From Ignavibacteriota bacterium (GTDB lineage Bacteria > Bacteroidota > Ignavibacteria > Palsa-1295): a stretch of 64,000 nt of DNA. The stretch lies in the NCBI GenBank assembly GCA_963794025.1, contig CAWCCK010000003.1, forward strand, positions 2,414 through 66,413. The letters run 5' to 3'. Of the stretch, positions 968 through 38,383 are shown piece by piece. The notes under the pieces are model-generated. The model did not search any database, had not been told where the DNA came from, and saw nothing but the letters and a program-made list of their open reading frames with translations. Position numbers and translations under genes: made by a program. Numbering within the stretch: the stretch's first letter is position 1; each line of letters opens with the position of its first letter.

Positions 968-1165
968 CTAAGTTTGTGAAGGAATAGCGCCCACCCGCTC
1001 TTCTCTCACCACTTTCATAGTTCCATCCGCTTGCGGAACGACCCATTGCAGCAACCCCGGTTCCGGCGAGATCACCATTGGCTCACCGGAGCGGCGGTGT
1101 TGTTCTATTACTTTATCAATGGCACGCTGGCCTGCTTCTATTACTGGGTCAATTAGCTGTTCCAT
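968..1165 (-). CDS. Small hypothetical protein (~65 aa from the internal Met; MEQLIDPVIEAGQRAIDKV...). Overlaps the 3' end of the zeta-like gene by about 17 nt.
   Basis: ORF track entry 968..1264. Start inferred at the internal ATG because upstream codons overlap the zeta-like CDS in another frame. No recognisable domain. Confidence 0.3.
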   Translation of the reverse strand: MEQLIDPVIEAGQRAIDKVIEQHRRSGEPMVISPEPGLLQWVVPQADGTMKVVREERVGAIPSQT

Positions 1166-1739
1166 ATTTCCTCCATAAAGCTTCGTACTTAATTTCGTCA
1201 ACAACAATTCGTTTCGTCGAAGTCCCCGAGGCGATAGGATTGAAAATTTTAGACGAATTATCAATTATTCGCCATTCGTCAGCCAATGGCAAATAAAGCT
1301 CGAAGAAGTTTTGCAGGCTTCGATCGTATCTGCGGAGCACGTCTTCGCGCGGCACGTTGTGTCCACCTTCACGCACCCTATCAGCAATTCTATTGAGTGA
1401 TAACTCTACCGAATTGAGATAAATGTAATACAGCCGAACGTCATACCCGAGTTCTTTCGCTTTTTCAATGAGAGCAAGATATGTTTTTCCACTCAAAGTC
1501 GTTTCTAACGCAAAAGAGACTTTTTCATCAATGAGTTGATGAACACGGGTGAGCAAAATTCTTCCCGCCTCGATCATTGCACCTTCCGGCTCGAATGGTG
1601 AAATGCCTTTTGCGATCAGGTCGGCATTGACGAACTCACGGACATTCGTGTACTCCGGCAAATAGGTATTGATGAATGTCGTCTTGCCAGCCCCGTTCGG
1701 TCCGGCGATGATGAGGAGTTCGGGATTATGGTCAGACAT
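1149..1739 (-). CDS. Zeta-toxin-like P-loop kinase / AAA-type ATPase (PezT/zeta family). An alternative start at 1823 adds 28 aa.
   Basis: Walker A LLIIAGPNGAGKTT and overall zeta-toxin domain layout (…FVNADLI…ETTLSG…YDVRLYYIYL…). ATG at 1739 precedes the P-loop. Confidence 0.75.
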   Translation of the reverse strand: MSDHNPELLIIAGPNGAGKTTFINTYLPEYTNVREFVNADLIAKGISPFEPEGAMIEAGRILLTRVHQLIDEKVSFALETTLSGKTYLALIEKAKELGYDVRLYYIYLNSVELSLNRIADRVREGGHNVPREDVLRRYDRSLQNFFELYLPLADEWRIIDNSSKIFNPIASGTSTKRIVVDEIKYEALWRKYGTAN

Positions 1740-1830
1740 ACGTTTCAGGTATAGGAAACGCCAATAATGCTTAATCCGTGCAGTGAGACACTCAAAATTT
1801 CCGTTTTTAAACATCCGCTCCAAGAATGTG

Positions 1831-2047: not shown

Positions 2048-3082
2048 ATGCGAGGAACAACCTTACTGACACAAAACCGATTCGAAGCCACGCACCGCGA
2101 AACCTTCGACGATGGCTGGGAAACGCTATCCGAAGAATTGCCGGTGCTGCAAACGCAATTTATTCCGGATCACGCGAAGAGCATTCTGTTCAAGAATGAC
2201 AGTCCGGATATTCCGACGGCGTACTCGCTAAATGCGTATCGCGGGTGCGAGCATGGCTGCGCATATTGCCGCGCCAGACCGTACCATGAATATCTCGGAT
2301 TCAATGCCGGCATTGATTTCGAAACGAAAATTATGGTCAAGCACGACGCGCCGGAATTGCTGCGTAAGGAATTTAGCAATCCGCACTGGATGCCGCAATC
2401 TATTATGATGAGCGGCAACACGGATTGCTATCAGCCCGCCGAGCGTGAACATAAGCTGACGCGGAAACTGCTGGAAGTATTTCTGGAATTTCGGAATCCG
2501 GTGAGCATTCTTACGAAGAACGCGCTCATCCTGCGCGATCTCGATCTGCTGAAAGAACTTGCGGAACTGAATCTTGTGCGAACGATGCTTTCGATCACTT
2601 CGATAGACCCAGAACTTCGCCGGAAACTCGAACCGCGTACTTCTACTGTAGATAGGAAATTCAAAGCGATGGAAGAGCTTGCCAAAGCGAATGTGCCCGT
2701 CGGCGTGATGGTCGGGCCGATCATTCCGGGACTGAACGATAACGAAGTTCCACAAATTCTGAAACGGGCGAGCGAGAACGGCGCGAAATGGGTCGCGCAT
2801 ACGATCTTGCGCTTGCCCTACGCCGTTGCGCCGATCTTTACGGATTGGATCGAGAAAAATTATCCGGAAAAAGCAGGCCGTGTAATGACGCGCATCCGCA
2901 TGATACGAGGCGGGAAATTAAACGATCCCAACTTTGGAACGCGCATGTCCGGCATCGGCGGCTACGCAGATTACATGCACAACGTCATCAAAGTGCTATC
3001 GCTAAAATATGGCATGACGGGTCACCGGGAACCGCTATCTGTGGATCAATTCCGAAGAGCCGGCGCGTGGGGGTTGTTTTGA
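2048..3082 (+). CDS. splB: Radical SAM protein, spore-photoproduct-lyase-like DNA repair enzyme (SplB / COG1533 family).
   Basis: CxxxCxxC cluster in YRGCEHGCAYCRAR plus downstream SPL-family conservation. Confidence 0.8.
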   Translation: MRGTTLLTQNRFEATHRETFDDGWETLSEELPVLQTQFIPDHAKSILFKNDSPDIPTAYSLNAYRGCEHGCAYCRARPYHEYLGFNAGIDFETKIMVKHDAPELLRKEFSNPHWMPQSIMMSGNTDCYQPAEREHKLTRKLLEVFLEFRNPVSILTKNALILRDLDLLKELAELNLVRTMLSITSIDPELRRKLEPRTSTVDRKFKAMEELAKANVPVGVMVGPIIPGLNDNEVPQILKRASENGAKWVAHTILRLPYAVAPIFTDWIEKNYPEKAGRVMTRIRMIRGGKLNDPNFGTRMSGIGGYADYMHNVIKVLSLKYGMTGHREPLSVDQFRRAGAWGLF

Positions 3083-3145
3083 AGGGTAAAGCAATCAGCA
3101 CTTTCTATCGGGTATCTTTGTATTCTTTGAAGAAAGGAAGAAATT

Positions 3146-3346
3146 ATGCAACCATATCACGCCGAAGCTATTATTAATCAGGAAGGCAAAATCATTCTGT
3201 CGCTGCCGTTTCCAGCGGGCAAGAAGGTGGACGTTGTAGTCCTGCCTTCCGACGAGGACATTGAAGATAAGGATTGGAAAAAAATGGCTCTCAAACATTT
3301 CCTCGATGGCTATGCGGACGAGGACTCGGTTTATGATGCGCTTTGA
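3146..3346 (+). CDS. Small (66 aa) acidic protein, antitoxin-like (beta-hairpin 'GKIILSLP…KVDVVVLP' then an acidic tail). Hypothetical.
   Basis: Complete ORF with AGGAAG Shine-Dalgarno-like sequence 8 nt upstream. Lower GC than the flanks. Family assignment is weak. Confidence 0.4.
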   Translation: MQPYHAEAIINQEGKIILSLPFPAGKKVDVVVLPSDEDIEDKDWKKMALKHFLDGYADEDSVYDAL

Positions 3347-3416
3347 GTAATGGTTCCTTCCCTGCTTTTGTTGCTTTTTTAGCTGTTAGGTTTTAATATT
3401 AATGGAGGATAAAATC

Positions 3417-3782
3417 ATGGTTAATAAAATAATTAGTTATTTCGATCTTCAATCCGAACACAGAGAAATCGTCGCTAAGGGGAATGCTGCGAGTGCCAAA
3501 AATACTTATGTTCTTCCGCAATATCTCATCGTTTCTGCTGGTGTAGTTATTGAACCATTCTTGAGGATTTATGTACAAAGTGGCACATGGGGGATTGACT
3601 CTTCCATCGTGTTTGGAAGAATTATATTCGGGCTTATCATGGGAATCATTCTTTTGCCACCAGCTTATAAAGCGACATTTGATACGGAGAAACCAATCTT
3701 CGTGCAACTCGCCGCATTGCTCCCCATAGGGATAGGATGGCAATCGCTTTTCAGTGCTTTGACAAAAATCACATTAGGATAA
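3417..3782 (+). CDS. Small multi-pass membrane protein (hypothetical). The ORF track begins at 3402. GGAGGA at 3404-3409 favours the ATG at 3417.
   Basis: Three hydrophobic segments (YLIVSAGVVIEPFL, IVFGRIIFGLIMGIILLP, LAALLPIGIGW). AT-rich. Confidence 0.5.
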   Translation: MVNKIISYFDLQSEHREIVAKGNAASAKNTYVLPQYLIVSAGVVIEPFLRIYVQSGTWGIDSSIVFGRIIFGLIMGIILLPPAYKATFDTEKPIFVQLAALLPIGIGWQSLFSALTKITLG

Positions 3783-3790
3783 ATTTTCTT

Positions 3791-4972
3791 ATGCTCATAG
3801 ATTATCTTAGATATGTTGCTTTTAAAGGACACCTTCGTGGCTTCTTCGAAAAGGGATTATATAATTATGTTAAGCAGGACGAGACTACGGGGCAGCACCT
3901 GCGTTTTTCTCCAGAATTCATAGACGAGAGACTTGGTTTGCGTGGACAAGAGGTAATTCATGACCTTTATTGTATGCCTCTCTCGAAGGATTTAATTTTC
4001 GAACGAATGAAATCCCGAATCGGAATATCGGGTGGCCCTGACGGAATTAGACGTTCTCCGTTTCGTGTTGGTGGTGAGCCGTCTTGCTTCACTTACAACG
4101 ACGGTGAAAATAGTTCTCCAAAACTTGAGATTATAGTAGATATAGATCCAAAGCATTGGAATGAGGGTTTTTCTGAAACAACCAATTACGAAGGCACACC
4201 GATTATATTCAGGCAAGCTGGAGTTGCAAGAGCTAACATTAATAGTGGCGATAAGCTATTCGACTCGAAGCTGGGAACGAAAAAATATGGAACTCTTTGT
4301 GGTATATTTTCTACATCGAAAAGCGAATATTGGGGTCTGACATGTGAGCATGTTGTGCGGAACTGGTCCCATGTTTCAATTGAGCACATTTATAAAGTCG
4401 GAAAATTTCGAAGTAAAAAAAACCGGAGTATTTTGGGTGATGTGTGCTACAAAGAAGTCTGTGGTGAGTTTAGAGATTTTGAACAGGTCAGGACTCAACT
4501 TGATGCGGTACTGATTGCGTTGGAGCCGTCTTATATAATAGAGTCTGAGATGCATAAGGACGAACATCGTGCTACGGTGAAACCAATCTCGGAAATTCTT
4601 CAAGAAGAACCTATCCTTTTTCGTGGCGCAGGGAGGATTCGAGAAACTCTCGCCCGCGTGTCTGCCGTAACCGTGAGAAAATCAATTGACCTTTACAATG
4701 ATGGTAAACTGAAAAGTGTTGGAGACGTTCTTATGCTTGGTCATGAACGTCCAATGTACATCGCACAACCTATTAGCAGAGGTGGAGATTCTGGTGCTGC
4801 TGTTCGGCAAAGTTTTTCATCCGTTGGAGGATACCGTGAGCATAATCAATGGTTCGGGATGGTATTGGGGTCTGATGGCGAAGGGGCATACGCAACACAT
4901 GCTGAAAATCTCTTTGCATGGGCTCAGCAGGTGCTGGTAAACCCTGATATTGAATTTCTATATGAGGTTTGA
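3791..4972 (+). CDS. Trypsin-fold (S1 / chymotrypsin-like) serine protease domain protein with an unrecognised ~240-aa N-terminal domain.
   Basis: Catalytic triad context: His in GLTCEHVV, Asp in LDAVLIALE, Ser in SRGGDSGAAV (classic GDSG). ATG at 3791 directly follows the upstream gene's stop. AT-rich. Confidence 0.7.
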   Translation: MLIDYLRYVAFKGHLRGFFEKGLYNYVKQDETTGQHLRFSPEFIDERLGLRGQEVIHDLYCMPLSKDLIFERMKSRIGISGGPDGIRRSPFRVGGEPSCFTYNDGENSSPKLEIIVDIDPKHWNEGFSETTNYEGTPIIFRQAGVARANINSGDKLFDSKLGTKKYGTLCGIFSTSKSEYWGLTCEHVVRNWSHVSIEHIYKVGKFRSKKNRSILGDVCYKEVCGEFRDFEQVRTQLDAVLIALEPSYIIESEMHKDEHRATVKPISEILQEEPILFRGAGRIRETLARVSAVTVRKSIDLYNDGKLKSVGDVLMLGHERPMYIAQPISRGGDSGAAVRQSFSSVGGYREHNQWFGMVLGSDGEGAYATHAENLFAWAQQVLVNPDIEFLYEV

Positions 4973-5101
4973 GCCTCCCCCGCGCACATTCCGTTTGCAA
5001 GTGAAAATATATAACGACGTGAGCATGGAGGTACATAAACCTGTTCTCTCATGTTTTTCATCCCCGTCGTCCGAAAATGTATTATATTTGTCTATGCTAT
5101 T

Positions 5102-5113
5102 ATAGGCACCTAT
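5102..5113. promoter_or_regulatory. Palindrome ATAGGCACCTAT overlapping the dinB start codon. Candidate operator; TATATTTG (-7-like element) lies about 25 bp upstream.
   Basis: 12-bp inverted repeat ATAGG-CA-CCTAT, also present upstream of ssb and the zeta-like gene. Confidence 0.45.
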
Positions 5114-6398
5114 GAATCTCATCCTCTGTCATCTCGATATGGACGCGTTCTTCGCTTCGGTCGAAGAAAAGCACGATCCGAGCCTGCGCGGGAAACCCGT
5201 GCTGGTGTGCGCCGGCCCGGTGGGTCGCGGCGCGGTTGCCTCGTGCAATTATGTGGCGCGGCGGCTGGGCATAAAAACGGGCATGAGCACACAGGAAGCG
5301 ATGCGTCAATTTCCGCAAGCGGTTCCCGTGCGCGCGAATTACGAGCGGTATCAGGAGGCGTCCGAGCAAATCCTGCGGATCATCTACCGTTTCACCCCGG
5401 ATGTCGAGCCGCTTAGTTTGGATGAATCGTTTTTCGAATTCACGCACGTTCCGCGCTGGCGGGACGATCCGCTTGGGGCTGCTCAGGCCATTCAGCGCGC
5501 GATAGACGAGGAACTTCACCTCAGCTCATCCATCGGAATTGCAAGCGGGAAAGTATTAGCCAAAATTGGGAGCGATTTTAAGAAGCCGCATGGCATTACC
5601 CAAGTGCCGTTTGGTTACGAGCAGGATTGGATCGCCACGCTGCCCGTCGAAGCCGTGCCCGGCGTCGGACACGCAACGGAACGAAAACTTAAAGAGCTTG
5701 GCATTGAAGTATGCGGCGATATTTGCCAAATGGCTCCCGGCGTGCTGCGTAAGCTGTTCGGGAATGTACACGGGACATTTCTCTGGAACATGGCGCATGG
5801 CCGCGATGCGCGTCCGCTCATGAAACGCGGCGCGGCGAAATCCATTTCGCATCAAAGCACGCTGCAAAAAACGACGACGGATAAAGACTATGTGGAATCG
5901 CTCTTGCTCTACATCGCCGAGCGCTGTCTCTGGCGTTTACGGACGAGCAGCATGAGCACACGCAGCCTTTCCATCTATATGCGGTTCGCCGATCAACGAT
6001 TCGCGCAACGGGCCACGCATCTAAAAATTCCCACGCAATCGGAGCAGGTTATCTTCCCGCTCGTCTCAGAAATGACGCGCGAGATCTGGCTTGCAAATCC
6101 ACGCCCGCGTGTGACGTTCATCGGTGTGCATCTCTCGGATTTCCAACCCACCACGCCGCAGGAGAAATTATTCTTCGACGATACAGAAAAGAAAGAACGC
6201 CTTTCGCGCACGATGGGGAATCTTCGTGAAAAATTTCACTCCCCCATTGTTACCAGCGCGCGAACGTTTGGATTGCATCATTCCTATCGCCTCTCGCAAG
6301 CCGGACTTTCGTTCAGCACGGCGAGCGTCGAGGGAAAAGAAGCGGAAGAAATGCTGAAACGAGAAGCAGAGAAATTTATGGCGATGGAAACGGCATAA
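5112..6398 (+). CDS. dinB: DNA polymerase IV (Y-family translesion polymerase).
   Basis: N-terminus ILCHLDMDAFFASVE and the ImpB/UmuC fold throughout. Confidence 0.9.
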   Translation: MNLILCHLDMDAFFASVEEKHDPSLRGKPVLVCAGPVGRGAVASCNYVARRLGIKTGMSTQEAMRQFPQAVPVRANYERYQEASEQILRIIYRFTPDVEPLSLDESFFEFTHVPRWRDDPLGAAQAIQRAIDEELHLSSSIGIASGKVLAKIGSDFKKPHGITQVPFGYEQDWIATLPVEAVPGVGHATERKLKELGIEVCGDICQMAPGVLRKLFGNVHGTFLWNMAHGRDARPLMKRGAAKSISHQSTLQKTTTDKDYVESLLLYIAERCLWRLRTSSMSTRSLSIYMRFADQRFAQRATHLKIPTQSEQVIFPLVSEMTREIWLANPRPRVTFIGVHLSDFQPTTPQEKLFFDDTEKKERLSRTMGNLREKFHSPIVTSARTFGLHHSYRLSQAGLSFSTASVEGKEAEEMLKREAEKFMAMETA

Positions 6399-6604
6399 TA
6401 AAAAAATAATATGGCTTCGGAAACCAATTTACTCATTTTGGGTTTCCATAGTTCTTCACAGAGTGGTTCATCGTGGCGATCCAGTAAAAATGATGGGTAA
6501 CGATACAATGAATTCATAATCTGCTGGATCGAAACCTTAGCGATAAATGAGCGTATCGTGCCTTTGGAAACTAACGAATCGATTCTGGTTTCCTCAGATT
6601 CCTC

Positions 6605-7303
6605 ATGCATCCAGACTCCACTATCGTTAAACCGACTACCGATCTCCGCAGCCGCATCGTCGATGCGGCACGAGAGCTTTTTCACGAGCATGGGTATTCG
6701 AAAGTATCGGCCAGCGAGATCGCGCAGGCTATCGGTATCAGCAAAAAGACGCTGTACCGCGAGTTCGAAACGAAGGAGGATATTCTTCGCGCCGTCATTC
6801 TGCCGAAGCTGAAAGAATCGGCAAAAAAGATCGATTCGATCCTTGCCGATCGCGCGATGCCGTTTCTGGATAAGCTGAAAGAAGTGATGTCCATGATCGG
6901 TTTTCAGCATCAGCGGGTTTCGCCGGTGCTTTCGCGCGATGTGTTCATTCACGCGCCGGAAGTGTGGCGGGAAATTCACGAAGTGAAACAAGCGCGATTC
7001 CGAAAATTCGGAACGCTGATCGAAGAAGGAATCGAACGCGGAGTATTTCGCTCGGATGTTCCGGCGGAAATCATTTTACGCAGTTATACGGCAGCCGTCG
7101 AGAGCCTAATGGTTCCGCAAACGCTCAGCGAGCTTCCTTGCACGGCACAGGTAGCGTTTCAAAGTTTGATTAAAATTTTATTCGAAGGCATTTTGGAAAC
7201 CGACGCGCGAAAAAATCTTCTGAAGCGGAAAACACCGCTTAAGAAGAACACGCGCCCCGTGGCAACGCGGTCACGCAATAAAAAAATAGTTCATTCGTCA
7301 TAA
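6605..7303 (+). CDS. TetR/AcrR-family transcriptional regulator.
   Basis: HTH YSKVSASEIAQAIGISKKTLYREFETKEDIL. Lies upstream of the efflux operon. Confidence 0.8.
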   Translation: MHPDSTIVKPTTDLRSRIVDAARELFHEHGYSKVSASEIAQAIGISKKTLYREFETKEDILRAVILPKLKESAKKIDSILADRAMPFLDKLKEVMSMIGFQHQRVSPVLSRDVFIHAPEVWREIHEVKQARFRKFGTLIEEGIERGVFRSDVPAEIILRSYTAAVESLMVPQTLSELPCTAQVAFQSLIKILFEGILETDARKNLLKRKTPLKKNTRPVATRSRNKKIVHSS

Positions 7304-11554: not shown

Positions 11555-14002
11555 ATGCGATTTCGGTCGCGCCTTTTGGGCGCTTTTGCTTTTTTTTATT
11601 TCACCACTCCGGTTGCGGCGCAGCCCGCAAAAGTGGATCATGCGGCTTCGCTTGAATACTCCCGCATTGGCTTCGACTTCGAGCAAAAAAAGGAATATAA
11701 ATACGCGCTCTTCGAATACGATACCGCTGCAAAATTAGACCCCACCTACGCTTATCCCGTCGAGCGCATTGGCGGGATGTATCAGGAGCTAAAAAATTAT
11801 CCGAAAGCCATCGATGCCTACGAGCGCGCCATCCGGCTCGATTCCATGTTCGATGTCTATGAGTATTATAATCTCGGCCTCTCGTTTCATGTCGTACAGA
11901 AATTCGATAGCGCCGTCCATGCGCTGCGGGAATTTATTGCCCGCATGGATCCCGTGAACAAAGCCGATAGCGCCGCGATGATCGACGCTGATTGGTGGAT
12001 CAAATTCAATCTGGGTTGTATCGTCGAATTTGCGAAACCGAAAAACACCGAAGACCCGATCGCGCTCAACGAGATCAATAGCAAATACGACGATTTCGCG
12101 CCGACGGAAACTGCCGATGGCACTACGCTTTTTTTTACTTCGACACGTCCGGGAACGAATGAAAAGGAGGAGATCGAAACCAAAGATTACGGCGAAGATC
12201 TGTTCATGACACACCGCGATACGCTTGGGCATTGGTCGAAACCGGAACCGCTTCCGCCGCCGATGAACTCCGTCGATGATGAAGGCTCGGCCTTCGTAAC
12301 CGCCGATGGACAAACGATGTACCTCAGCCTCTGCCGCCGACCCGACGGCATGGGCGATTGCGATGTGTATGTTTCGCGTCTTGTTGGTGACATCTGGACA
12401 AAACCACAGCCACTCGGGCACCCGCTGAACTCGACTGCGTGGGACGCCAACCCCAGCGTCACCGCCGATGGCGAGACCATGTATTTCTCCAGCCGCCGGC
12501 ATGGTTCCATAGATGGTTCCGAAGATATTTACGTCTCCTACAAAAATACAGATGGTTCCTGGTCGGTGCCGACTAATGTGGGCGAGCCGATCAACACGCG
12601 CTTTAACGAACGTTCCCCCTTCATATCTGCCGATGGAAAGACGCTGTACTTTTCATCGAACGGGCATCCCGGTTTCGGCAATCACGATCTGTTCTTGTCC
12701 CGCAAGCTCGATGATGGAACCTGGAGCGTGCCCGTCAATCTTGGCCGCCCCATTAATGCGTATGGCGACGATGAGTTCCTAACCATTCCTGCCAGCGGCG
12801 ATAAAATTATTTATTCGACTCAGCGCGATAATGCACGAGCGCCGCTCAGTCTTTATGAAGCAAAACTTCCGCTCGAATTTCGTCCGGGGCCGGTGACGTT
12901 GGTCGAAGGAATTGTGTATGATAAGGAAACGCTGCAACCCATTGGCGGAGAGGTCGATGTCAACGATCTCAAAACCGATAAATTAGTAGCAACCTATCAT
13001 GCCAACAAAGTAACGGGCAAGTTTTACATCACGTTGGGAACCGGAAAAGAATATGGCGTGACTGCAATCGCTCCCGGTTACGCACCCTACTCCGATCATT
13101 ATACCGTTCCCGATACGATCTCCTACCGCGAAGTAACGCACGATCTTCCGCTTACGAAGCTGCCGAATTACGCGATCATCCATGCGGTCGATAGCGCAAA
13201 AGATTACCACGATAGTTTGCTCGCGGCCAATACCGAAAAGAGTTACCAAAATACGGGCAGGGATCTGCACGGAGCCGGCAATACTGGAGGCGCCGACACG
13301 ACGGGCGATTGGATGCGCAATCATCATCCGGGACGTGACACGACCGGCGATTGGATGCGCAATCATCCGGGACGTGACACGACCGGCGATTGGATGCGTA
13401 ATCATCCGGGACGTGATACTACCGGCGATCGGATGCGCAATCATCCGGGACGTGATACCACCGGCGATTGGATGCGTAATCATCCGGGACGAGACACGAC
13501 AGGCGATTGGAAACGCAAACATCCGGAACGCGACACGACAGGTGATTGGAAGCGCAAACACCCGGAACGTGACACGACGGGTGACTGGAAGAAGCGCCAT
13601 CATTTAGGTCCGGACACTACGGGTAACTGGGCACGAAATCATCCGAACATCGATACCTCTGGCATCGAGCTACATAATGTATTCTTCGATTTCGATAAAG
13701 CAACGCTGCGGCCTGAATCGCATAGCGAACTGAATTATTGGGTCGATCTGCTGAAGAAATATCCGGTGCTCAAGATCGAGATCGATGGGCATACGGATTC
13801 CGTCGGCACGGCGGCGTATAATGGGAAGCTTTCGCTTGCACGAGCCGAAGCAGTCAAGGCGTACTTGGTAACACATGGCGTGAAAGCAAAACAAGTGGTT
13901 CCGAAAGGCTTCGGCGCCACAAAACCGAAAGCTCCGAACGATACCGACGAAGGCCGCCAGCGCAACCGCCGCACGGAGTTTCGGTTTATAAAACAGTCAT
14001 GA
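11555..14002 (+). CDS. PorE-like OmpA-family protein: signal peptide, TPR repeats, TolB/PD40-type beta-propeller, 11-aa tandem repeat region, OmpA C-terminal peptidoglycan-binding domain.
   Basis: TPR-like N-terminus. PD40 repeats (…SVTADGETMYFSS…, …FISADGKTLYFSS…). OmpA_C (…EIDGHTDSVGTAAYN…LSLARAEAV…RRTEF). This architecture matches the T9SS component PorE. Confidence 0.7.
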   Translation: MRFRSRLLGAFAFFYFTTPVAAQPAKVDHAASLEYSRIGFDFEQKKEYKYALFEYDTAAKLDPTYAYPVERIGGMYQELKNYPKAIDAYERAIRLDSMFDVYEYYNLGLSFHVVQKFDSAVHALREFIARMDPVNKADSAAMIDADWWIKFNLGCIVEFAKPKNTEDPIALNEINSKYDDFAPTETADGTTLFFTSTRPGTNEKEEIETKDYGEDLFMTHRDTLGHWSKPEPLPPPMNSVDDEGSAFVTADGQTMYLSLCRRPDGMGDCDVYVSRLVGDIWTKPQPLGHPLNSTAWDANPSVTADGETMYFSSRRHGSIDGSEDIYVSYKNTDGSWSVPTNVGEPINTRFNERSPFISADGKTLYFSSNGHPGFGNHDLFLSRKLDDGTWSVPVNLGRPINAYGDDEFLTIPASGDKIIYSTQRDNARAPLSLYEAKLPLEFRPGPVTLVEGIVYDKETLQPIGGEVDVNDLKTDKLVATYHANKVTGKFYITLGTGKEYGVTAIAPGYAPYSDHYTVPDTISYREVTHDLPLTKLPNYAIIHAVDSAKDYHDSLLAANTEKSYQNTGRDLHGAGNTGGADTTGDWMRNHHPGRDTTGDWMRNHPGRDTTGDWMRNHPGRDTTGDRMRNHPGRDTTGDWMRNHPGRDTTGDWKRKHPERDTTGDWKRKHPERDTTGDWKKRHHLGPDTTGNWARNHPNIDTSGIELHNVFFDFDKATLRPESHSELNYWVDLLKKYPVLKIEIDGHTDSVGTAAYNGKLSLARAEAVKAYLVTHGVKAKQVVPKGFGATKPKAPNDTDEGRQRNRRTEFRFIKQS
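13295..13665 (+). repeat. 33-bp tandem repeat (about 10-11 copies) inside the PorE-like CDS, encoding (G/E)RDTTGDW(M/K)R(N/K)HP units.
   Basis: Direct read: cgggacgtgacacgaccggcgattggatgcgcaatcatc repeated with drift. Confidence 0.85.
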
Positions 14003-18825: not shown

Positions 18826-18841
18826 AGTAATGAGTGGATGA

Positions 18842-18911
18842 GTACCAAGTACCAAGTACCAAGTACCAAGTACCAAGTACCAAGTACCAAGTACCAAGTA
18901 CCAAGTACCAA
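18842..18911. repeat. Heptanucleotide microsatellite (GTACCAA)x10, directly followed by an inverted repeat GTACCGAGCACCGACCAACTCGGTAC.
   Basis: Direct read. Lies in the 5' leader of purS, between pssA and purS. Confidence 0.9.
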
Positions 18912-18957
18912 GTACCGAGCACCGACCAACTCGGTACTCGGTACTCATCACTTGGTA

Positions 18958-21764: not shown

Positions 21765-22133
21765 AATTAGGAATGGAGAATTAGGAATGGAGAATTAGAA
21801 ATTGAGAATTAGGAATTAGGAATGTGGATGATCCGATAAAGTCCAACCTGTCATCCTGAGCGGAGTTTGTCACGACGCGCATCGACCACGATGCTTGGAG
21901 TGAGGAACGGAGTCGAAGAATCTCATGCAGTTACGCTTAGTGGTGAATGTCCGGAGATCCTTCGACTCCGCAATCCGATGCTTCGAGCATCGTCGACGAT
22001 GCGGGTCGAATTGCTCCGCTCAGGATGACATCTTAATCTAATCTGTGTCAGCCATTCTTAATTCTTAATTCTTAACTCTTAATTCTTAATTTATAAATCC
22101 CCTATTCTTCATTCTTAACTCTTAATTCTTCAT
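21765..22133. repeat. Composite repeat: family A MITE copy 3 (21850-22029, 180 bp) flanked by inverted simple-repeat arms (AATTAGGAATGGAG)n on the left and (ATTCTTAATTCTTAACTC)n on the right.
   Basis: Direct read. The arms are roughly reverse complements of each other, giving a large potential cruciform between recJ and the 7TMR-HD gene. Confidence 0.7.
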
Positions 22134-22176
22134 TGATAAGGACACCTTTTGCCATACTGCATTAGTTGCAAGCTGG

Positions 22177-24489
22177 ATGAAGGACGAACGATCCAAAACC
22201 ACGCTCGGTACGCGCACGATCCGGTCGCTGCGGGAGGCGCTTGCTGACCCGAAATGGCGGCGTTCGAAGCCGATTAGGTGGACAATCGGTATTGTGCTGA
22301 CGCTTGTGATCGCCGCGCTTTTCCCGAGCGCGCATACGATCGCGCTTTCGGGATATGCAGCCGGCTCGCTGTGGACGAATGCGGACGTGACCGCGCCCTT
22401 TACGTTCCCTGTCTATAAAGATGGCGTGCGGTATGGGCAGGATGTTCGCAAAGCGCTTCAGGAACTTCACTCGGTATATGTGCCGGATACGAGCGCGCCA
22501 TCCGCAAGCGTGCGGAACTTTCGAAAACATTGGGACCGTCTGATGCATGTGCTTACGCTTGCGCGGGTCGATTCTCTCGGCGGCGTTTCCCTGCTCGATT
22601 CTGCAAAAACGCTCGGCCTTTCGAGAGACGATTGGACGCTGCTCGCCTCTTCCGTTCAATCCCAAAATCAGAAACAATTTGAGCGAAGCGTGCGCGATTG
22701 GAGCGATCTCGAAGCGTATATTGTGCGGCAGATCGGGGAGATGGAATCCATGCGTTTTATTACGTCGGGCAAGCCGGAAGAAACGGCGAACGATCCGAAA
22801 TTTTTTGCGCTCCGCACCCGCCTGAACGAGGAATCGCTGATCGTTCGCGATTCTCTGCTCACTGTTCAAGCGGTTGCGAACCGCATTTACGCGAAATTAG
22901 AAGCGCGTTTGAAACACGACTCCCCACTGCTACATCCGCTTTCGACGCTCGTTTTGCAATCTTTAGTTCCGACTGTCGCTTTCGATCAGACGCTCACGGA
23001 AGAAAGCCGCCAATCTATTATCGATCGCGTTCCGACTACGGATGGCCTTGTGATTGAAGGACAAAAGATCGTCGAAAAAGGCGAAGTGCTGACGCCGCAG
23101 ATCGTTGCATCGCTCGAAAGTCTTTCGAAAGCGCGGCTGGAACGCGGCGGCAGAGTTGCGGAACTCTTACGCATTTTGGGAACGATCGGTCATGCGGGGC
23201 TGATCGTGATGCTCATCGTGCTGTACCTCAAATTTATTCGCCGCAAGATCTATAACGATAACGCGCAGATATTATTGCTGGCGCTCGTCGTGCTCTTTCC
23301 GGCTGTGATGGCCTACTTCTCGGTAACGATTCCCGTAGATTTTCCACTGCAATATTTTATTCTGATTCCCGTGGCTTCGATGCTGCTCACTATTTTGTTC
23401 GATAGTCGAACGGGATTCTACGGCACCGTAGCGGCATCGCTTATTGTGGCGGGTATTCGCGGGAATGATTATTCGGTCGCATTAGCGGGACTCTGCGCGG
23501 GCGCGTTCGCGGCCTACACGGTGCGCGATCTGCGTAACCGAAGCCAGCTTTTTACGAGCATCGGATATATTTTTATTGGTTATGTGGTTTCGATCTCCGC
23601 GCTGTCGTTAGAGCAGGGAACTCCTCCCGGCGAAGCAGGATTGGAACTGATCTCCGCGCTTGGCAACGCACTGGTTTCGCCCGTCGTGACGCTCGGGCTG
23701 CTCTATGCGATCGAAATGCTCTTCGATACCGCAAGCGATCTTCGGTTAACGGAATTCGATAACGTGAACCAGCCGCTGCTTCGGGAACTTGCGCTCCGCG
23801 CGCCGGGAACGTATCAGCATACGATGATGGTCGCGCAATTAGCCGAACATGCCGCGATCGCCATTGGCGCGAACGGATTGCTTGCAAAGATCGGCGCGTA
23901 TTTTCATGATATTGGCAAGCTGAACGACCCCGTAACCTTTGTTGAAAACCAAACCGGCGAGACTGGGAACATTCACGAAACACTCACGGCCCGCGAAAGC
24001 GCAAAGCGCGTGAAAAAGCATGTCGCCGATGGCATTGCGCTCGCCAAGGCACAGGGATTGCCACAGCGCATCATTGATTTCATTCCCATGCATCACGGAA
24101 CGCTTCCCATCTCTTTTTTTTATCTTCGAGCGGTCACCGAAGGCGCGGGCGATGGCATTGTGAACGAGCATGAATTTCACTATGCCGGCCCGCTTCCGAA
24201 TTCGAAAGAAACGGTGATCGTTATGCTGGCCGATGCCTCCGAAGCGATCTCCAGATCGCTTGCACGGAAGGGCGAAGAGATGTCGTTCGAAACAATCGAT
24301 GCGGCGATCGAGCAGCTTATTCACACCCGTTTCGAGCAGGGACAGTTCGATCAATCGGACATCACCGTGAGAGATTTCACGATGATCCGCGCGGTGTTCG
24401 CGCGGCATTTATCCGGACTGCATCATCCACGCATCCCCTATCCAACCGCGCAAACGATGGATATGAAAATCACGCCTGCGACCGCATAA
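22177..24489 (+). CDS. 7TM receptor with intracellular HD hydrolase (7TMR-HD / PgpH-like HDIG phosphohydrolase).
   Basis: Extracellular N-terminal region, seven TM helices, C-terminal HD domain (…YFHDIGKLNDP… …IPMHHGT…). Confidence 0.75.
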   Translation: MKDERSKTTLGTRTIRSLREALADPKWRRSKPIRWTIGIVLTLVIAALFPSAHTIALSGYAAGSLWTNADVTAPFTFPVYKDGVRYGQDVRKALQELHSVYVPDTSAPSASVRNFRKHWDRLMHVLTLARVDSLGGVSLLDSAKTLGLSRDDWTLLASSVQSQNQKQFERSVRDWSDLEAYIVRQIGEMESMRFITSGKPEETANDPKFFALRTRLNEESLIVRDSLLTVQAVANRIYAKLEARLKHDSPLLHPLSTLVLQSLVPTVAFDQTLTEESRQSIIDRVPTTDGLVIEGQKIVEKGEVLTPQIVASLESLSKARLERGGRVAELLRILGTIGHAGLIVMLIVLYLKFIRRKIYNDNAQILLLALVVLFPAVMAYFSVTIPVDFPLQYFILIPVASMLLTILFDSRTGFYGTVAASLIVAGIRGNDYSVALAGLCAGAFAAYTVRDLRNRSQLFTSIGYIFIGYVVSISALSLEQGTPPGEAGLELISALGNALVSPVVTLGLLYAIEMLFDTASDLRLTEFDNVNQPLLRELALRAPGTYQHTMMVAQLAEHAAIAIGANGLLAKIGAYFHDIGKLNDPVTFVENQTGETGNIHETLTARESAKRVKKHVADGIALAKAQGLPQRIIDFIPMHHGTLPISFFYLRAVTEGAGDGIVNEHEFHYAGPLPNSKETVIVMLADASEAISRSLARKGEEMSFETIDAAIEQLIHTRFEQGQFDQSDITVRDFTMIRAVFARHLSGLHHPRIPYPTAQTMDMKITPATA

Positions 24490-32665: not shown

Positions 32666-34265
32666 TTGAATGGTGGAATGACTAAAGGCAATATTCTCTG
32701 GGTCGATGACGAGATCGACCTGCTGCGACCGCATATTATGCTGCTCGAAGGGCGCGGCTATACCATTCGCACTGCTCTGAGCGGTGAAGATGCGCTTGTT
32801 ATCGCTTCCGAGCAGCCTGTCGATCTGGTTTTTTTGGATGAGAATATGCCGGGTATGGGCGGTTTGGAAACGCTCGAACGGCTGAAAGCGGTGCGTCCCG
32901 AAACGCCCGTCGTGATGGTGACGAAATCGGAAGAAGAAGACCTGATGGAGCAGGCGATCGGGAAGAAAATTTCGGATTATCTGACGAAACCCGTCAACCC
33001 GACGCAAGTGCTGCTTGCGGTGAAGAAATTTTTGGAGGGCCGGCAAATTGTGAACGAAGCCGTCTCGCGGGATTACACGCAGGAATTCGCGCGTATCTCG
33101 CTCGACCTGATGAATGCTTCGACTGCGAAGGACTGGACGGAACTATATGCGAAGATCGTCGGCTGGGAAATGGAATTTGACGAGCATACGGGACTTGGTT
33201 TGAAGCAAACACTGCTCGATCAGAAGCGGGAAGCAAATGCAGAGTTCGGGAAATTTGTCGAGCGGCATTACAAAGACTGGGTCAATACGATCTATGTGGA
33301 ATCGAATGCGGCGAACCGGCCGGCGATGTCGCCGGATATAGTCGAGCAATGGGTGCTGCCGGAACTGCAATCGGACGCGAAGCAGAATGTGGTATTTTTC
33401 GTGATCGACTGCATGAGGCTGGATCAGTGGCTGATCATGGAAGCGGAACTCCGTAACCTGTTTAAGATCACGCGGAACTATCATTTTGGTATTCTTCCGA
33501 CAGCCACGCCATACGCGCGGAATGCGATCTTTTCGGGAATGTTCCCATCGGAATTCGGGAAGCTGTATCCGAACATGTGGTCATCGAAGGATGATGACGA
33601 GAGTTCGCTGAATCGGGATGAAGCCGATATGCTGCATAAGTTATTGGATCGAAAGCGCATTAAATTGCGGCAGGAGATGAAGTATATTAAGATCATCGAC
33701 CGCGATTATGGCGCCGGTATCGCGCAGAATATCTCGAATCAGGCGAAGAACCATTTCACAGCCATTGTGGTGAACTTTGTTGACATGCTTGCACATACGA
33801 GAAGCGATTCGCCGATCTTAAAAGAGATCGCGCCGGATGAAAGTGCGTATCGTTCCCTTACGCGGTCGTGGTTCATGCATTCGAGTTTATATCGATATGT
33901 TCAAATCGCTGGCCTCGGTGCCGAATTTGAAGATCGTCGTATCGACGGATCACGGTTCCATCCGCAGTTTGCGAGGCGCGAAAGTGATCGGCGACCGCGA
34001 GACCTCGACCAGCCTGCGCTACAAATATGGCCGGAACGTGAAAGCAGAAGAAAAGCAAGCGATGATCATCAAGCATCCGGAAGAGTATAAACTTCCCGTT
34101 CGCGCGAACGCAACGAACTATATCATAGCAAAAGAGGATTATTATTTCGTCTATCCAACCGACTACCACAAATACCTGAATTACTACCGCGATTCGTTCC
34201 AGCATGGCGGCATTTCGATGGAAGAGGTGATATTGCCGGTGGTGACGATGGAACCTAAATCTTAA
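32666..34265 (+). CDS. porX: PorX-like response regulator: CheY receiver fused to a PglZ / alkaline-phosphatase-like domain. Apparent frameshift at about 33880-33900.
   Basis: Receiver motifs (ILWVDDE…DLVFLDENMPGMGG…KP). PglZ region split between ORF 32666..34090 and ORF 33837..34265 (…KIVVSTDHGSIR…QHGGISMEEVILP). Confidence 0.75.
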
Positions 34266-35231: not shown

Positions 35232-38200
35232 ATGCGGTCGGTTTTAATCTTCTCTGTTATTATTGCGGGAATTTTCGTTGGCAGTCAGAGTTTCGGCCAA
35301 ACGATGGTTCCCGCTATTCCGGAGAAACAGGGCGTTATTCTCCTACGCGTAAGTTCCTCGCTCGATAGCGCACTGGACGCTATGTTCTATGCTACACGCC
35401 CGCTTGGCGACCCCACATTTGCACATAGCGAAATTAATCTCGCAGTTCTCAGTAACGATAGCGCAATACGCCGCTTGCTCGGCTTACCAAGCGGGTTGCA
35501 TGGGCTTCAACTCAAGCCGTTCATTCCTACGCACAGTGTGGCCTTCGAAGGTATTCGGGAACGTTCCAATCCACAGCTTTTTGCTCATGAGGATGTTGCC
35601 GCCTCTCCCCCAACCCCCTCATCGTCGGCGATGCCTCCCTGCTGGGCGAGGGGGCTTTACTAACTTCTGAGAATAATATTTCCCATTGGTTCCTGCTGTT
35701 TTATTCCGATTCTATTTCAGGCGATCGGGCATCGGAACTCGTTCGGAAATCCTCTTTCATACAAATAGCAGAACCAGAATATATCCGTCACTCATGCACG
35801 GTGCCGATCTATACGCCGAACGATCCAGATATTAGCCAGCAATATTCGCTTACGCTCATGAATGTTTTAGAGGCGTGGGACGTCGTTCGGTGCGATTCGA
35901 CGATGATCGTAGCTGACGCAGACGTTGGCACTGACTGGCTTCACGCCGATCTCGAGGCATCGATCTATCAAAATCCTGGTGAGATGGGAATAGATAAGAA
36001 CGGGAACAATAAACGTTACAATGGCATCGATGACGATAGCGACGGCTTTATTGACGATTGGCACGGCTGGGATTTTGGCGGAACATACGGCACCACACCC
36101 GATAACGATGCCCGTCCCGGCTTGGGAACCGACGGTAACGTTGTCATGCACGGTACGCAAACAGCGGGAATTTTTGCCGCTACTGGTAATAACGATAATG
36201 GCATGGCCGGCGTTGCGTTCGGCGCGAAGATCATTCCCATCAAGATCAGTGACGATGAGGGGAATATCGAGTTTGCATTTCAAGGCGTGATCTATGCAGC
36301 CGATCTGCATGCGCGCGTAGTCAATTGCTCGTGGGGTGGCACGGGCCGTTCGGACGCGGAGCAAGACGTCATCAATTATGCGTATGCAAAAGGCTGTGCG
36401 GTGATAGCTGCTGCCGGAAACTCTGGTAACGATTCCCCCTTCGAAGATTTTTATCCGGCGGCGTACGATCATGTGCTTTCCGTCGCGGCAGTCGATCCCA
36501 ACAGCAACATCGGGAGCTTTTCCAATTTCAATACGCATGTGGATGTATCCGCTCCCGGAGTTGCGATCCTTAGCACTATTCCGACGCTCGGCAGCACTAC
36601 GGATAATAGTTACATCTCCGATGAGAATGACGCCAGTGGCACAAGCTTCGCAGCACCGAACGCGGCGGGCGTCGTAGCGCTCGTGTTACAGCAGTTCCCA
36701 AGTTTAACGGTGGGCCAGGCGATGGAGCAAGTTCGGGCGACAAGCGATCCAGTAGAAGCGGTCTGGAACAACAATACCGGCGTTGTCACACCGGTCGATA
36801 GTACACGGCTCTACTACGAAGGACGTGGCGCAGTCAATGCATTCCAAGCCGTTACCGATACGAATACGTTTTCTGCACGTATCGATAGCGTTACCCTTGA
36901 AGATCATAACAGCACTGGAACGTTTGCTCCCGGCGAGAGCGGCGGCATTGTTATTCACGCGATGAACTATCTGAAACCGCTCCAGCAGCTTAAGGCGCGG
37001 ATCGAAGTGGTGAACGGCGCAAATTATGTGACGCTCCAACAGACGATTGTTCCCTTCGGCTCTGTGGGAACGCTCGATGAGGTCTCGAATAATTCGACTG
37101 CGTTCCAGATCGCGATAGCCGATAGCACTCCGGTTAATACAAAGATCCTGATCCGGGTGTTCTTCTTCGATTCCGTTGTTGGATACACCGAAGATTACGA
37201 TTATTTCAGTTTTGTGGTGCAGCCATCGTATCTCGATCTGAACGCGAATAATCTCACGGTAACTTTTTCTTCCATTGGAAGCTTGGGATACAACGATGTG
37301 CTCAACAATGAAGAAGGTTCCGGCTTTTTGTGGCGCAATGCTCCGGATTCCATCGCGCCTTTTAGTCAATCACTTTTGTATGAAGGTGGGCTGATGGTCG
37401 GTACCGATACCGGTCATGTGGTCGATGTGGTGCTCAGCGAAGATGGAGTAACAGCGGATGAAGACCTCACGCCAACTCAACTCACGCATTACGTTGAGCC
37501 GCCGGATCATGCAAATGCCGCGCAGGAACTTGCATTCGCTCTCACGGATGATCTTGCCGATTCTGACAAGATCGGGCTTCGCGCTACGTGCCAGGCGTAT
37601 GCGTTCACGCAAGGTCTGGCGGCGAACGCGATCGTAGCACGGTATGTATTTCTTAGCGAGCCTGGAAGCGCGCTTTCCTTAACAGATACCGCTGCTGCCG
37701 CGCTTTTTCTCGATTGGGATATTGGACTTTCCGGCTCCAATAATTTCACGGTGTTCGATACAGCAAGCTCGACCGCAATCTCCTACTGTGCCTATCCGGA
37801 TAATCCTTATATTGGAATGAAACTGCTTTCTCCGCTCCCGCCCGGCGCGGCGCTTAATTATTACGCCATTATGAACAATGGCTCCCAGGGTCCGATCGAC
37901 ATTTATTCGGCCTATTCAAAGCGCAATAAATGGACGACCATGACGAATTTTAATAGTTCCGCCGGAGCTGGTGACATATCCCATACGTTCGGCCTCAAAA
38001 AAATGCCGATGCGATCTCAAGGTTCTGTCGAGATGACGGTCGTGATCGCGCTGGCGGAGAACGCAGCAGTATTGCAGCAAACCATTGCTGAAGTGGATAG
38101 CCTTTGGTTCGGAATAGCTGGCGTTGTGCCCGAAGCGCTCGCACCTTCAAGCACGTTAGAAGTGTTCCCAAATCCTTTTCATAACACGCTGCATATTGCG

Positions 38201-38383
38201 TGGGATGCGACCGGGCCAGCGCACCTCACGATCTACGATGCGCTTGGCCGAACGATCGTTTCCAAAGAGGTGACGAGCAGCCAATTCGATTTCTCGCCGC
38301 CCGAAATTCCATCCGGATTTTATACCATCGACGTATCCATTGGCAGTACACATTTGCGAAGACAAGTGATCGCGTCAAATTAG
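35232..38383 (+). CDS. Subtilisin-family (S8) serine peptidase with T9SS C-terminal domain. The signal/propeptide part (35232..35663) and the catalytic part (from 35801; frame open from 35591) are in different frames across a hairpin-element insertion.
   Basis: Signal peptide and propeptide-like start. …IQIAEPEYI… propeptide end. Catalytic triad contexts DDDSDGFIDD(D), HGTQTAG(H), GTSFAAPNAAG(S). C-terminus …LEVFPNPFHNTLHIAW…. Confidence 0.75.
35600..35660. repeat. GGGAGAGGG-family hairpin element (longer variant) GCCTCTCCCCCAACCCCCTCATCGTCGGCGATGCCTCCCTGCTGGGCGAGGGGGC at the S8 frame break.
   Basis: Same 5' half as the methyltransferase copy. Contains C-homopolymers where a 1-nt miscall would change the frame. 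Confidence 0.6.

Follow-up and report, generated by a model that had tools for sequence, protein, structure and literature searches.

What does a trypsin-like protease do in a bacterial genome when it carries no apparent means of leaving the cytoplasm, and with what does it work? The question is raised by a gene on the forward strand (positions 3791–4972) of a 64,000-nucleotide stretch from an Ignavibacteriota bacterium (contig CAWCCK010000003.1 of assembly GCA_963794025.1; hereafter the window, from the first letter of which all positions are counted). An original prediction, made from the sequence alone, had proposed that this gene encodes a cytoplasmic, effector-type serine protease fused to an N-terminal domain of about 240 amino acids (aa) that could be assigned to no family. 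Our analysis identified the product as a cytoplasmic trypsin-fold (PA clan) serine protease of 393 aa from an unnamed family, which is encoded together with a small membrane protein in an accessory, mobile two-gene cassette, and it indicates a remote relationship of the protease to NAL1 of plants. As to function, we tentatively propose that the protease gates its membrane partner.

A cytoplasmic trypsin-fold serine protease

The reading frame of the protease can be extended upstream to position 3737, where it would overlap the preceding gene. We prefer the start at 3791, because all 40 aligned homologues begin with MLIDYLRY and the database gene call for this protein (P0001) is likewise 393 aa long. 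The three motifs of the catalytic triad are present as quoted in the original prediction: GLTCEHVV with His187 (LTCEH, 4349–4351, forward strand), LDAVLIALE with Asp238 (LDAVL, 4502–4504, forward strand) and SRGGDSGAAV with Ser334 (GDSGAA, 4790–4792, forward strand). All three residues are invariant among 40 close homologues (30–57% identity) as well as in an alignment of 108 members of the superfamily, in which the mean column identity is 18% and the sole invariant columns are H187, D238, D333, S334 and G335. Such conservation at both depths argues that the motifs did not arise by chance.

The AlphaFold2 model, built on the alignment of 40 sequences (mean predicted local distance difference test score, pLDDT, 88.1; predicted template modelling score, pTM, 0.91), is a confident chymotrypsin-type double barrel. 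With this model Foldseek gave 45 PDB matches of E ≤ 1e-3, all of them chymotrypsin-fold proteases as far as listed, with a probability of 1.00 for NAL1, alpha-lytic protease, thrombin, trypsin and 3C proteases. The top match is rice NAL1 (E 5e-10 to 2e-7, ~380–437 columns, template modelling (TM) score 0.40–0.47), followed by alpha-lytic protease and its relatives (TM-score 0.64–0.73, normalised to the target) and further by thrombin, trypsin and picornaviral 3C proteases; a search of BFVD, a database of viral structure predictions, had the same trypsin-fold outcome. The invariant residues, the model and the Foldseek matches thus bear out the proposed trypsin-fold serine protease with an intact and conserved triad, and an active enzyme is predicted.

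The model divides the chain into an N-terminal domain (approximately aa 1–150; 3791–4240, forward strand), which is helical at residues 3–77 and continues with beta strands at residues 79–142, and a serine protease domain (approximately aa 155–393; 4253–4969, forward strand), which was identified as the double beta-barrel by Foldseek and by the profile match to NAL1. A low-confidence linker (residues 152–154) joins the two. Residues D4, L6, R7, A10, G34, H36, D117, P120, W123 and R141 of the N-terminal domain are invariant in the 40 homologues. Because some 30 residues of the barrel precede His187, and because profile matches to NAL1 and Trypsin_2 start around residues 146–190, we estimate the non-protease part at about 150 aa, so that the ~240 aa proposed earlier are too many. 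The earlier failure to assign this part to a family is shared by our searches, since no library names the N-terminal domain.

The highest value of a 19-residue Kyte-Doolittle window along the whole chain is only 0.74, and the N-terminus is a conserved helix that is modelled with confidence. Judged by hydropathy and by this structured helix, the protein has no signal peptide, in agreement with the original prediction, and no transmembrane segment; no PDZ or other envelope-type Pfam module was found in it. As there is neither a hydrophobic segment nor a secretion domain, and the N-terminal helix is structured, we conclude that the protease is cytoplasmic. The combination of a signal peptide with a PDZ or HtrA-like module, which would have made the protein an ordinary envelope protease, was looked for and is absent, and the view that this is not a secreted degradative enzyme is upheld in that a secreted or envelope role has become very unlikely.

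A small membrane protein encoded directly upstream

Only 8 nt separate the start of the protease gene from the end of another gene on the same strand (3417–3782), which the original prediction overlooked and which we regard as the most informative feature of the locus: it encodes a small membrane protein of 121 aa, here termed the partner, and forms with the protease gene a two-gene cassette. Its start at 3417 is supported by the N-termini of its homologues and by the position of a Shine-Dalgarno-like GGAGGA (3404–3409, forward strand; read from the sequence) 7 nt ahead of the ATG. The partner family comprises 317 clusters, none of which is named or has a Pfam domain. The partner encoded in the window itself matches nothing in Pfam (E ≤ 1) or PADLOC, no model of NCBIfam or PHROGs reaches its threshold for it, and neither Foldseek nor a profile search returned anything significant.

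The AlphaFold2 model of the partner (pLDDT 80.8, 78 sequences) is all-helical. A short N-terminal helix (residues 2–9) is followed by a disordered, variable stretch (residues 10–32, pLDDT ~50) and by three long helices (residues 33–55, 62–87 and 94–120), with a kink at the invariant P103-G105-G107-W108. The Kyte-Doolittle hydropathy is strong for helix 2 (2.25) and moderate for helices 1 and 3 (1.46 and 1.63), and there is no charged C-terminal tail. Invariant residues are found in the N-terminal motif Y8-F9-D10-L11-Q12-S13..R16 (YFDLQS), in loop 2 (Y84..F88-D89..P93; YKSxFDPxKP) and in helix 3. Loop 1 has no basic residues, whereas the tail and loop 2 have them, so that by the positive-inside rule the conserved tail motif and loop 2 are expected to face the cytoplasm. 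The partner would therefore be an inner-membrane protein with both of its conserved soluble motifs on the cytoplasmic side, which is where the protease is.

A homologue of the partner lies directly upstream of the protease in 12 of the 12 distinct contexts outside Bradyrhizobium that have upstream DNA, with stop-to-start gaps of 1–16 nt in the contexts where they were read; beyond the pair, the neighbourhoods are unrelated among contexts. The pairing is kept in two distant cassettes, the proteases of which share ~25–30% identity: one from Bradyrhizobium (L029; 122 aa + 367 aa) and one (L030; 127 aa + 381 aa) with a protease of the type found in our alignment of distant relatives (A4, see below). 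Across 13 loci the pairwise identities of partner and protease are correlated (r = 0.64, a value reached by 10 of 5000 Mantel permutations), with a mean pairwise identity of 53% for the partner versus 38% for the protease. The two genes are thus tightly and conservedly paired and inherited together. No third gene is conserved beside the cassette, and no sensor-type Pfam or PADLOC domain was found.

A variant arrangement occurs in Hyphomicrobium sp. xq (L028, positions 5001–6682), where the partner gene lacks the usual protease downstream and is convergent to an 84-aa gene and a gene for a trypsin-like protein of 351 aa (motifs ILSNAHVF, VDAAVALI and GDSGALVF). The latter matches the superfamily profile in the protease domain only (E 2e-8), its N-terminus being different. 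The locus lies near a resolvase gene and a TraG-like gene.

Both cassette proteins also contain an invariant Leu-Gln. In the partner it belongs to FDLQ-S (L11-Q12-S13, 3447–3455), and in the protease to ILQ-EEP (Q271-E272, 4601–4606), which sits in the linker between the two barrels. These motifs recall the LQ|S/A/G sites of 3C-like proteases; that they might be sites of cleavage or auto-processing is pure speculation from the sequences.

The protease superfamily and its link to plant NAL1

The window protease has zero matches in Pfam and NCBIfam at E ≤ 1, including the Pfam families Trypsin_2 (PF13365) and Trypsin (PF00089). The assignment to these families that the original prediction had suggested checking therefore fails for the protein itself, while its relatives do show weak similarities of this kind: sub-threshold Trypsin_2 matches were found for 10/40 close and 11/40 distant members (best E 4e-5). 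Equally weak, sub-threshold matches to Peptidase_S64 (the Ssy5 family) were found for 12/40 distant members, and a match to Nal1_C for one of the 40 (E 0.007). PADLOC-DB 2.0.0 yielded for the protease just a match to PDC-M18B (E 0.033 over 30 residues), and PHROGs yielded nothing.

In a search of 5.8 billion proteins the close family comprised 68 clusters, none of them named; the genomes named for it belong to Bradyrhizobium, Paraburkholderia, Thalassospira and metagenome-assembled genomes of Burkholderiales and Alphaproteobacteria. A profile search of 1.84 billion representatives found 372 proteins at E ≤ 1e-3, of which 42 reached E ≤ 1e-30. We worked with two alignments of 40 sequences each, one of close homologues (A1) and one of distant relatives (A4). 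The distant set is homologous to the close family from end to end, also in the N-terminal domain (hhalign probability 100, E 7e-48, 350 columns), and the window protease matches its profile with E 2e-39.

When the profile of the distant relatives was compared with all PDB sequences, NAL1 alone was matched, in seven sequence variants (E 4e-4 to 5e-3). All nine top matches of the profile of the 108 superfamily sequences were to NAL1 (E 9e-4 to 0.012) and stood above the noise. The alignments span the protease domain (profile positions 146–355) and bring into register GTLGG with GTLGA, TCxHV with TNHHV and DxAL with DGAF, as well as GDSG. Searches of the PDB sequences with the single sequence and with the profile of the close family gave only noise (THO5; a designed protein with E 0.02). 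Since the profile matches agree with the Foldseek ranking, we consider NAL1 the nearest characterised relative of the window protease, a relationship that the original prediction did not see. Together, profiles and model indicate that the protease is a remote relative of NAL1 and not a member of the NAL1 family: no match to Nal1_C (PF25819) was found for the window protease (not to E 1) or for any of the 40 close members, and no Pfam match to NAL1_N (PF25608, ATP-binding) was found for the window protease.

The relationship does not extend to the N-terminal domain at the level of sequence. A resemblance noted by eye (LIDYLRYVAF versus LLDLMTIRAF) was rejected after hhalign found nothing, and hidden Markov models of the N-terminal domain scored NAL1 no better than 2000 shuffles, a control of low power, as most NAL1 entries are exon fragments without the N-terminus. 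Following these two failures we leave the domain without a family; the hint of a NAL1-like architecture comes solely from the whole-chain Foldseek alignment (TM-score ~0.45).

NAL1 (NARROW LEAF 1; PDB 7Y77, 8PMG and 8HAS) is a cytoplasmic plant protease with N-terminal, ATP-binding and protease domains, which forms a hexameric cage (PMC12012508), and it has been described as plant-specific (PMC12915138). Like NAL1, the bacterial protein places an extra N-terminal domain ahead of the trypsin-fold domain and is cytoplasmic rather than secreted; NAL1 is its top Foldseek match over nearly the whole chain and the sole significant PDB sequence match of the superfamily profile. Unlike the bacterial protein, NAL1 has no membrane partner gene, and the N-terminal domains of the two share no sequence similarity. 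Our literature searches found no description of bacterial relatives of NAL1 or of the protease-partner cassette.

A mobile cassette in a variable genomic slot

Comparison with relatives by blastn and the G+C (GC) profile place both genes in a variable slot with an insertion of ~2 kb (3084–5126). On the left the slot is flanked by a PA0069-family radical-SAM gene ("DNA repair photolyase"; 2048–3082, forward strand; NCBIfam NF033668, E 4e-138), which shows 90% DNA identity to relatives, and on the right by dinB for DNA polymerase IV (5112–6398, forward strand; Pfam IMS domains, members of its cluster being named DNA polymerase IV). Both flanking genes are core-genome genes outside the cassette. 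The GC content of the cassette region is 40–42%, versus 50–58% in the flanks.

For the slot comparison we used three of the related assemblies that encode proteins with ≥ 90% identity to DinB and the radical-SAM protein of the flanks. One of them (L032) has an empty site: homology to the window ends at 3083 and is taken up again at 5127, and the two blocks are only 27 bp apart. In another (L031) homology ends at 3126 and resumes at 5072, and the slot (L031 positions 3910–5918) is occupied by a C5 DNA methylase and a BsuBI/PstI-type endonuclease, which form a type II restriction-modification pair. This context had likewise escaped the original prediction. The slot can be regarded as a small integration hot-spot without obvious repeats or integrase; a search for direct or inverted repeats bounding the insertion gave short matches of chance size only.

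In the window the slot contains, in addition to the partner and protease genes, an open reading frame (ORF) of 66 aa (3146–3346, forward strand). It has a weak match to the RelN/AbrB-type antitoxin-like model NF050107 of NCBIfam (E 0.011; 16 bits versus a cutoff of 70), yielded nothing usable in Pfam, PADLOC or PHROGs, and was absent from all other cassette loci in tblastn searches. As it was found at no other locus, we place it outside the module; an antitoxin that stands alone or a small regulator would be conceivable. A scan for promoters and terminators gave nothing above shuffles, and no tRNA or Rfam features were found in the window.

Close to the slot lies a gene for a zeta-toxin-like P-loop kinase (1149–1823, reverse strand; Pfam Zeta_toxin, E 2.6e-13), the 3' end of which is overlapped by a small ORF of 65 aa (968–1165, reverse strand); the local GC content is 40–45%. 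In place of 968–1823 the relatives hold PIN-type toxin-antitoxin pairs or a truncated zeta gene, and because of these differences we consider the region a second variable, toxin-antitoxin-rich segment beside the slot.

The taxonomic spread of the cassette is patchy, covering Alpha- and Betaproteobacteria plus the bacterium of the window. The latter encodes several proteins with sorting domains of the type IX secretion system (T9SS), which places it far from the proteobacterial carriers and is consistent with horizontal transfer. We conclude that the cassette is accessory and mobile, a horizontally acquired two-gene operon.

What the cassette may do

Our proposal for the function of the pair, to which we give somewhat less than an even chance, is that the cytoplasmic tail of the membrane partner is the target of the protease, so that the two constitute a protease-gated membrane effector. 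The protease would dock on the flexible cytoplasmic N-terminal tail of the partner and cut within it; the N-terminal domain of the protease may restrain the enzyme or aid the assembly of an oligomer; the cut would switch the three-helix membrane module to an active, membrane-perturbing state, and the outcome would be an effector gated by proteolysis, as in bacterial conflict and abortive-infection systems. The partner would fit the part of a substrate for docking and cleavage, because it presents a conserved short motif, then a flexible and variable linker, and then the membrane module. We infer all three steps: the partner as the substrate, its activation by cleavage, and defence or growth arrest as the outcome. 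The same applies to the "effector-type" label that the original prediction attached to the protease: if any protein of the cassette is an effector, the partner is the likelier one, with the protease as the enzyme that processes or controls it.

Among close relatives the slot alternates between the cassette, a type II restriction-modification system and an empty site, and toxin-antitoxin genes are found nearby. We favour a role in defence or conflict because a sister strain has a restriction-modification system at this very site. Several observations weigh against this role and against the gating of the partner. Among known anti-phage systems, searched with PADLOC-DB 2.0.0, the partner has no match and the protease only a sub-threshold fragment, and PHROGs are negative as well. 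No recognisable sensor (STAND/Avs, CBASS or CRISPR) was found in the protease, which consists just of the N-terminal domain of ~150 aa and the protease domain. Only a handful of 100 flanking ORFs in other genomes match defence models, for which reason enrichment in defence islands is not established, and the flanks in these genomes are mostly metabolic or unremarkable. The third related assembly (L033) has in the slot a gene with a CarboxypepD_reg domain that does not look like a defence gene, and its radical-SAM gene is disrupted. Neither the plasmids of PLSDB nor the phages of INPHARED gave a tblastn match to the protease. The known protease-activated effectors are beta-rich, whereas the partner is helical. 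Finally, four Bradyrhizobium loci (L008, L009, L010 and L017), one of them beside IS21 remnants, encode an intact protease without an adjacent partner, which suggests that the protease may have partner-independent substrates. It is on account of the lack of a sensor, the negative PADLOC result, the mostly not defence-like flanks and the orphan proteases that we hold the gating of the partner below even odds.

In two more Bradyrhizobium loci (L014 and L015) the protease gene is frameshifted. In the Bradyrhizobium clade with orphan proteases the metabolic neighbourhood (aminotransferase, beta-eliminating lyase, aldehyde dehydrogenase) is conserved. Two readings offer themselves: decay of the module in this clade, or a role of the protease that does not depend on the partner.

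The main rival explanation, which we consider unlikely but a serious contender, is that of a membrane-tethered regulatory protease, in which the protease would be recruited or controlled by the partner, as its anchor or sensor, and would cut other cytoplasmic substrates, much as in the receptor-activated proteolysis by yeast Ssy5 or the cleavage of transcriptional regulators by NAL1; the cassette would then not be an effector for suicide or defence. It draws on the same evidence of pairing and topology as the gating of the partner, and it would be in line with NAL1, the nearest characterised relative, a protease with a regulatory role whose targets are transcription factors (PMC12012508). It is also favoured by the weak Peptidase_S64 matches in 12/40 distant relatives, although these are sub-threshold and confined to the GDSG region, by the intact Bradyrhizobium proteases without an adjacent partner, and by flanks that in most genomes are not defence-like. 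However, no candidate gene for a substrate or regulator is conserved beside the cassette, and an accessory, low-GC cassette that swaps places with a restriction-modification system would be unusual for a circuit integrated into host regulation.

An arrangement similar to toxin-antitoxin systems, in which the partner would be a toxic holin-like or depolarising protein that the protease continuously degrades or inactivates, and which would be freed by loss or inhibition of the protease, appears improbable to us. The arrangement of two genes in one operon would suit it, as would the variable region with its many toxin-antitoxin genes (the zeta-toxin-like gene at 1149–1823 in the window, PIN modules in relatives), and the tolerance of orphan proteases is what one would expect if just the small protein were dangerous. 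On the other hand, Hyphomicrobium has the partner without a cognate downstream protease, even if another protease of the superfamily adjoins it, and both the toxin-first order and a large "antitoxin" of 393 aa with an extra conserved domain would be atypical. An ordinary secreted or periplasmic protease for degradation or quality control (HtrA/DegP-like or alpha-lytic-like) is essentially excluded, even though the fold resembles that of alpha-lytic protease and other secreted S1 enzymes, since the protein lacks a signal peptide, a transmembrane segment and a PDZ domain, none of the Pfam models for Trypsin, Trypsin_2 or HtrA matches it, its N-terminus is a conserved structured helix, its N-terminal domain is conserved throughout the superfamily, and its gene is accessory.

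If the gating of the partner is combined with the relationship to NAL1, one arrives at a more far-reaching proposal, which in its entirety we regard as rather doubtful: the cassette would be an effector system of a kind not recognised before, in which the family-specific N-terminal domain of a self-contained NAL1-like protease would sense a trigger or govern the assembly of a cage, and the protease would cut the YFDLQS tail of the partner and thereby cause membrane damage or growth arrest; the superfamily would comprise the prokaryotic relatives, and possibly the source, of NAL1.

Comparison with known protease systems

The closest parallels to the proposed gating are Pepco and EACC1, small proteins encoded just upstream of trypsin-like or caspase-like proteases, which are latent pore-formers activated by a single cut (Evans et al. 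2025, PMC12642450). The cassette resembles the Pepco (Trypco1/2) and EACC1 systems in that a small (~117–121 aa), non-enzymatic protein is encoded just upstream of a protease with which it co-evolves, and, by analogy, in the proposed logic by which one cut would make the small protein membrane-active. The proteins themselves differ: Pepco is a soluble beta-barrel and EACC1 a beta-rich monomer, whereas the partner is an integral membrane protein of three helices; Pepco has a cleavable C-terminal tail and forms a beta-barrel oligomer, whereas the partner is all-helical and has no charged C-terminal tail; EACC1 is paired with a cysteine protease and the partner with a serine protease. Moreover, the protease of the cassette is not fused to STAND/Avs or any other recognised sensor. 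Membership of the cassette in the Pepco/Trypco or EACC1 systems is ruled out by the absence of Pfam and PADLOC matches and by the helical partner. Within the theme of a protease with a small partner the two-gene arrangement is new, combining a helical integral-membrane partner with the lack of a STAND-type sensor.

With the bacterial proteases of the Trypsin_2/S1 type (alpha-lytic protease, SGPB) the window protease shares the double beta-barrel, the His-Asp-Ser order and the GDSG motif. The alpha-lytic-type enzymes are, however, secreted and have pro-regions and disulfides, whereas the window protease is cytoplasmic and has a distinct, conserved N-terminal domain of 150 aa. HtrA, DegP and DegS are also trypsin-fold serine proteases that work beside the membrane; in contrast to them, the window protease has no signal peptide, anchor, PDZ domain or Pfam match.

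A further likeness is to Ssy5 (MEROPS S64, PF08192), the receptor-activated endoprotease of yeast, in which a chymotrypsin-like domain likewise follows a large N-terminal regulatory domain. Ssy5 works with a membrane protein, the SPS sensor. Weak S64 matches around the catalytic serine are found in 12/40 distant relatives and in NAL1 itself, but they are sub-threshold and local, and neither the N-terminal domains nor the membrane components are homologous.

Other features of the window

Several features elsewhere in the window deserve mention. A tandem repeat of 39 nt at 13295–13589 (7.5 copies, 89% matches) encodes the 13-aa repeat GRDTTGDWMRNHP, which lies in a protein of 815 aa (11555–14002) with a hydrophobic N-terminus; a partly captured homologue of this protein in one of the related assemblies (L032) has Pfam matches to TPR, PD40 and OmpA. 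Three intergenic arrays of heptanucleotides were found, AGTACCA x10.9 (100% matches; 18841–18916), an AATTAGG-type array x8.4 (21765–21823) and ATTCTTA x11.4 (22054–22134), two of them just upstream of a gene for a 7TM-HD receptor (22177–24489). These arrays may be phase-variable or regulatory. The product of the gene at 32666–34090 (forward strand) is a fusion of a response-regulator receiver domain (Pfam E 1.6e-24) and a PglZ domain (Pfam E 2.2e-10). The large proteins encoded by a gene cluster (35801–38383, 40972–43887, 45430–48072 and 54733–59274) comprise one subtilase and three with Ig-like domains of the HYDIN/ASH type. C-terminal sorting domains of type IX secretion are present in two of these proteins (35801–38383 and 40972–43887), which points to a host of the FCB group (Bacteroidota-like), unlike the mostly proteobacterial carriers of the cassette.

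Significance

Both proteins of the cassette fall outside any named family, and their homologues are annotated as "hypothetical", yet they show conservation, tight pairing and mobility. If the protease does act on its partner, a helical integral-membrane effector would join the few effectors of death or defence that proteases activate (gasdermin, Pepco, EACC1, MBL and others), and with just two genes and no STAND-type sensor the cassette would be a minimal form, for which the question of the trigger would arise. The protease itself adds a new branch without a name to a very familiar fold, and no bacterial group other than its superfamily was found here to be linked by both sequence and structure to the agronomically important NAL1. 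These bacterial relatives could thus serve as tractable models for the fold and the regulation of NAL1, and could provide clues to its origin.

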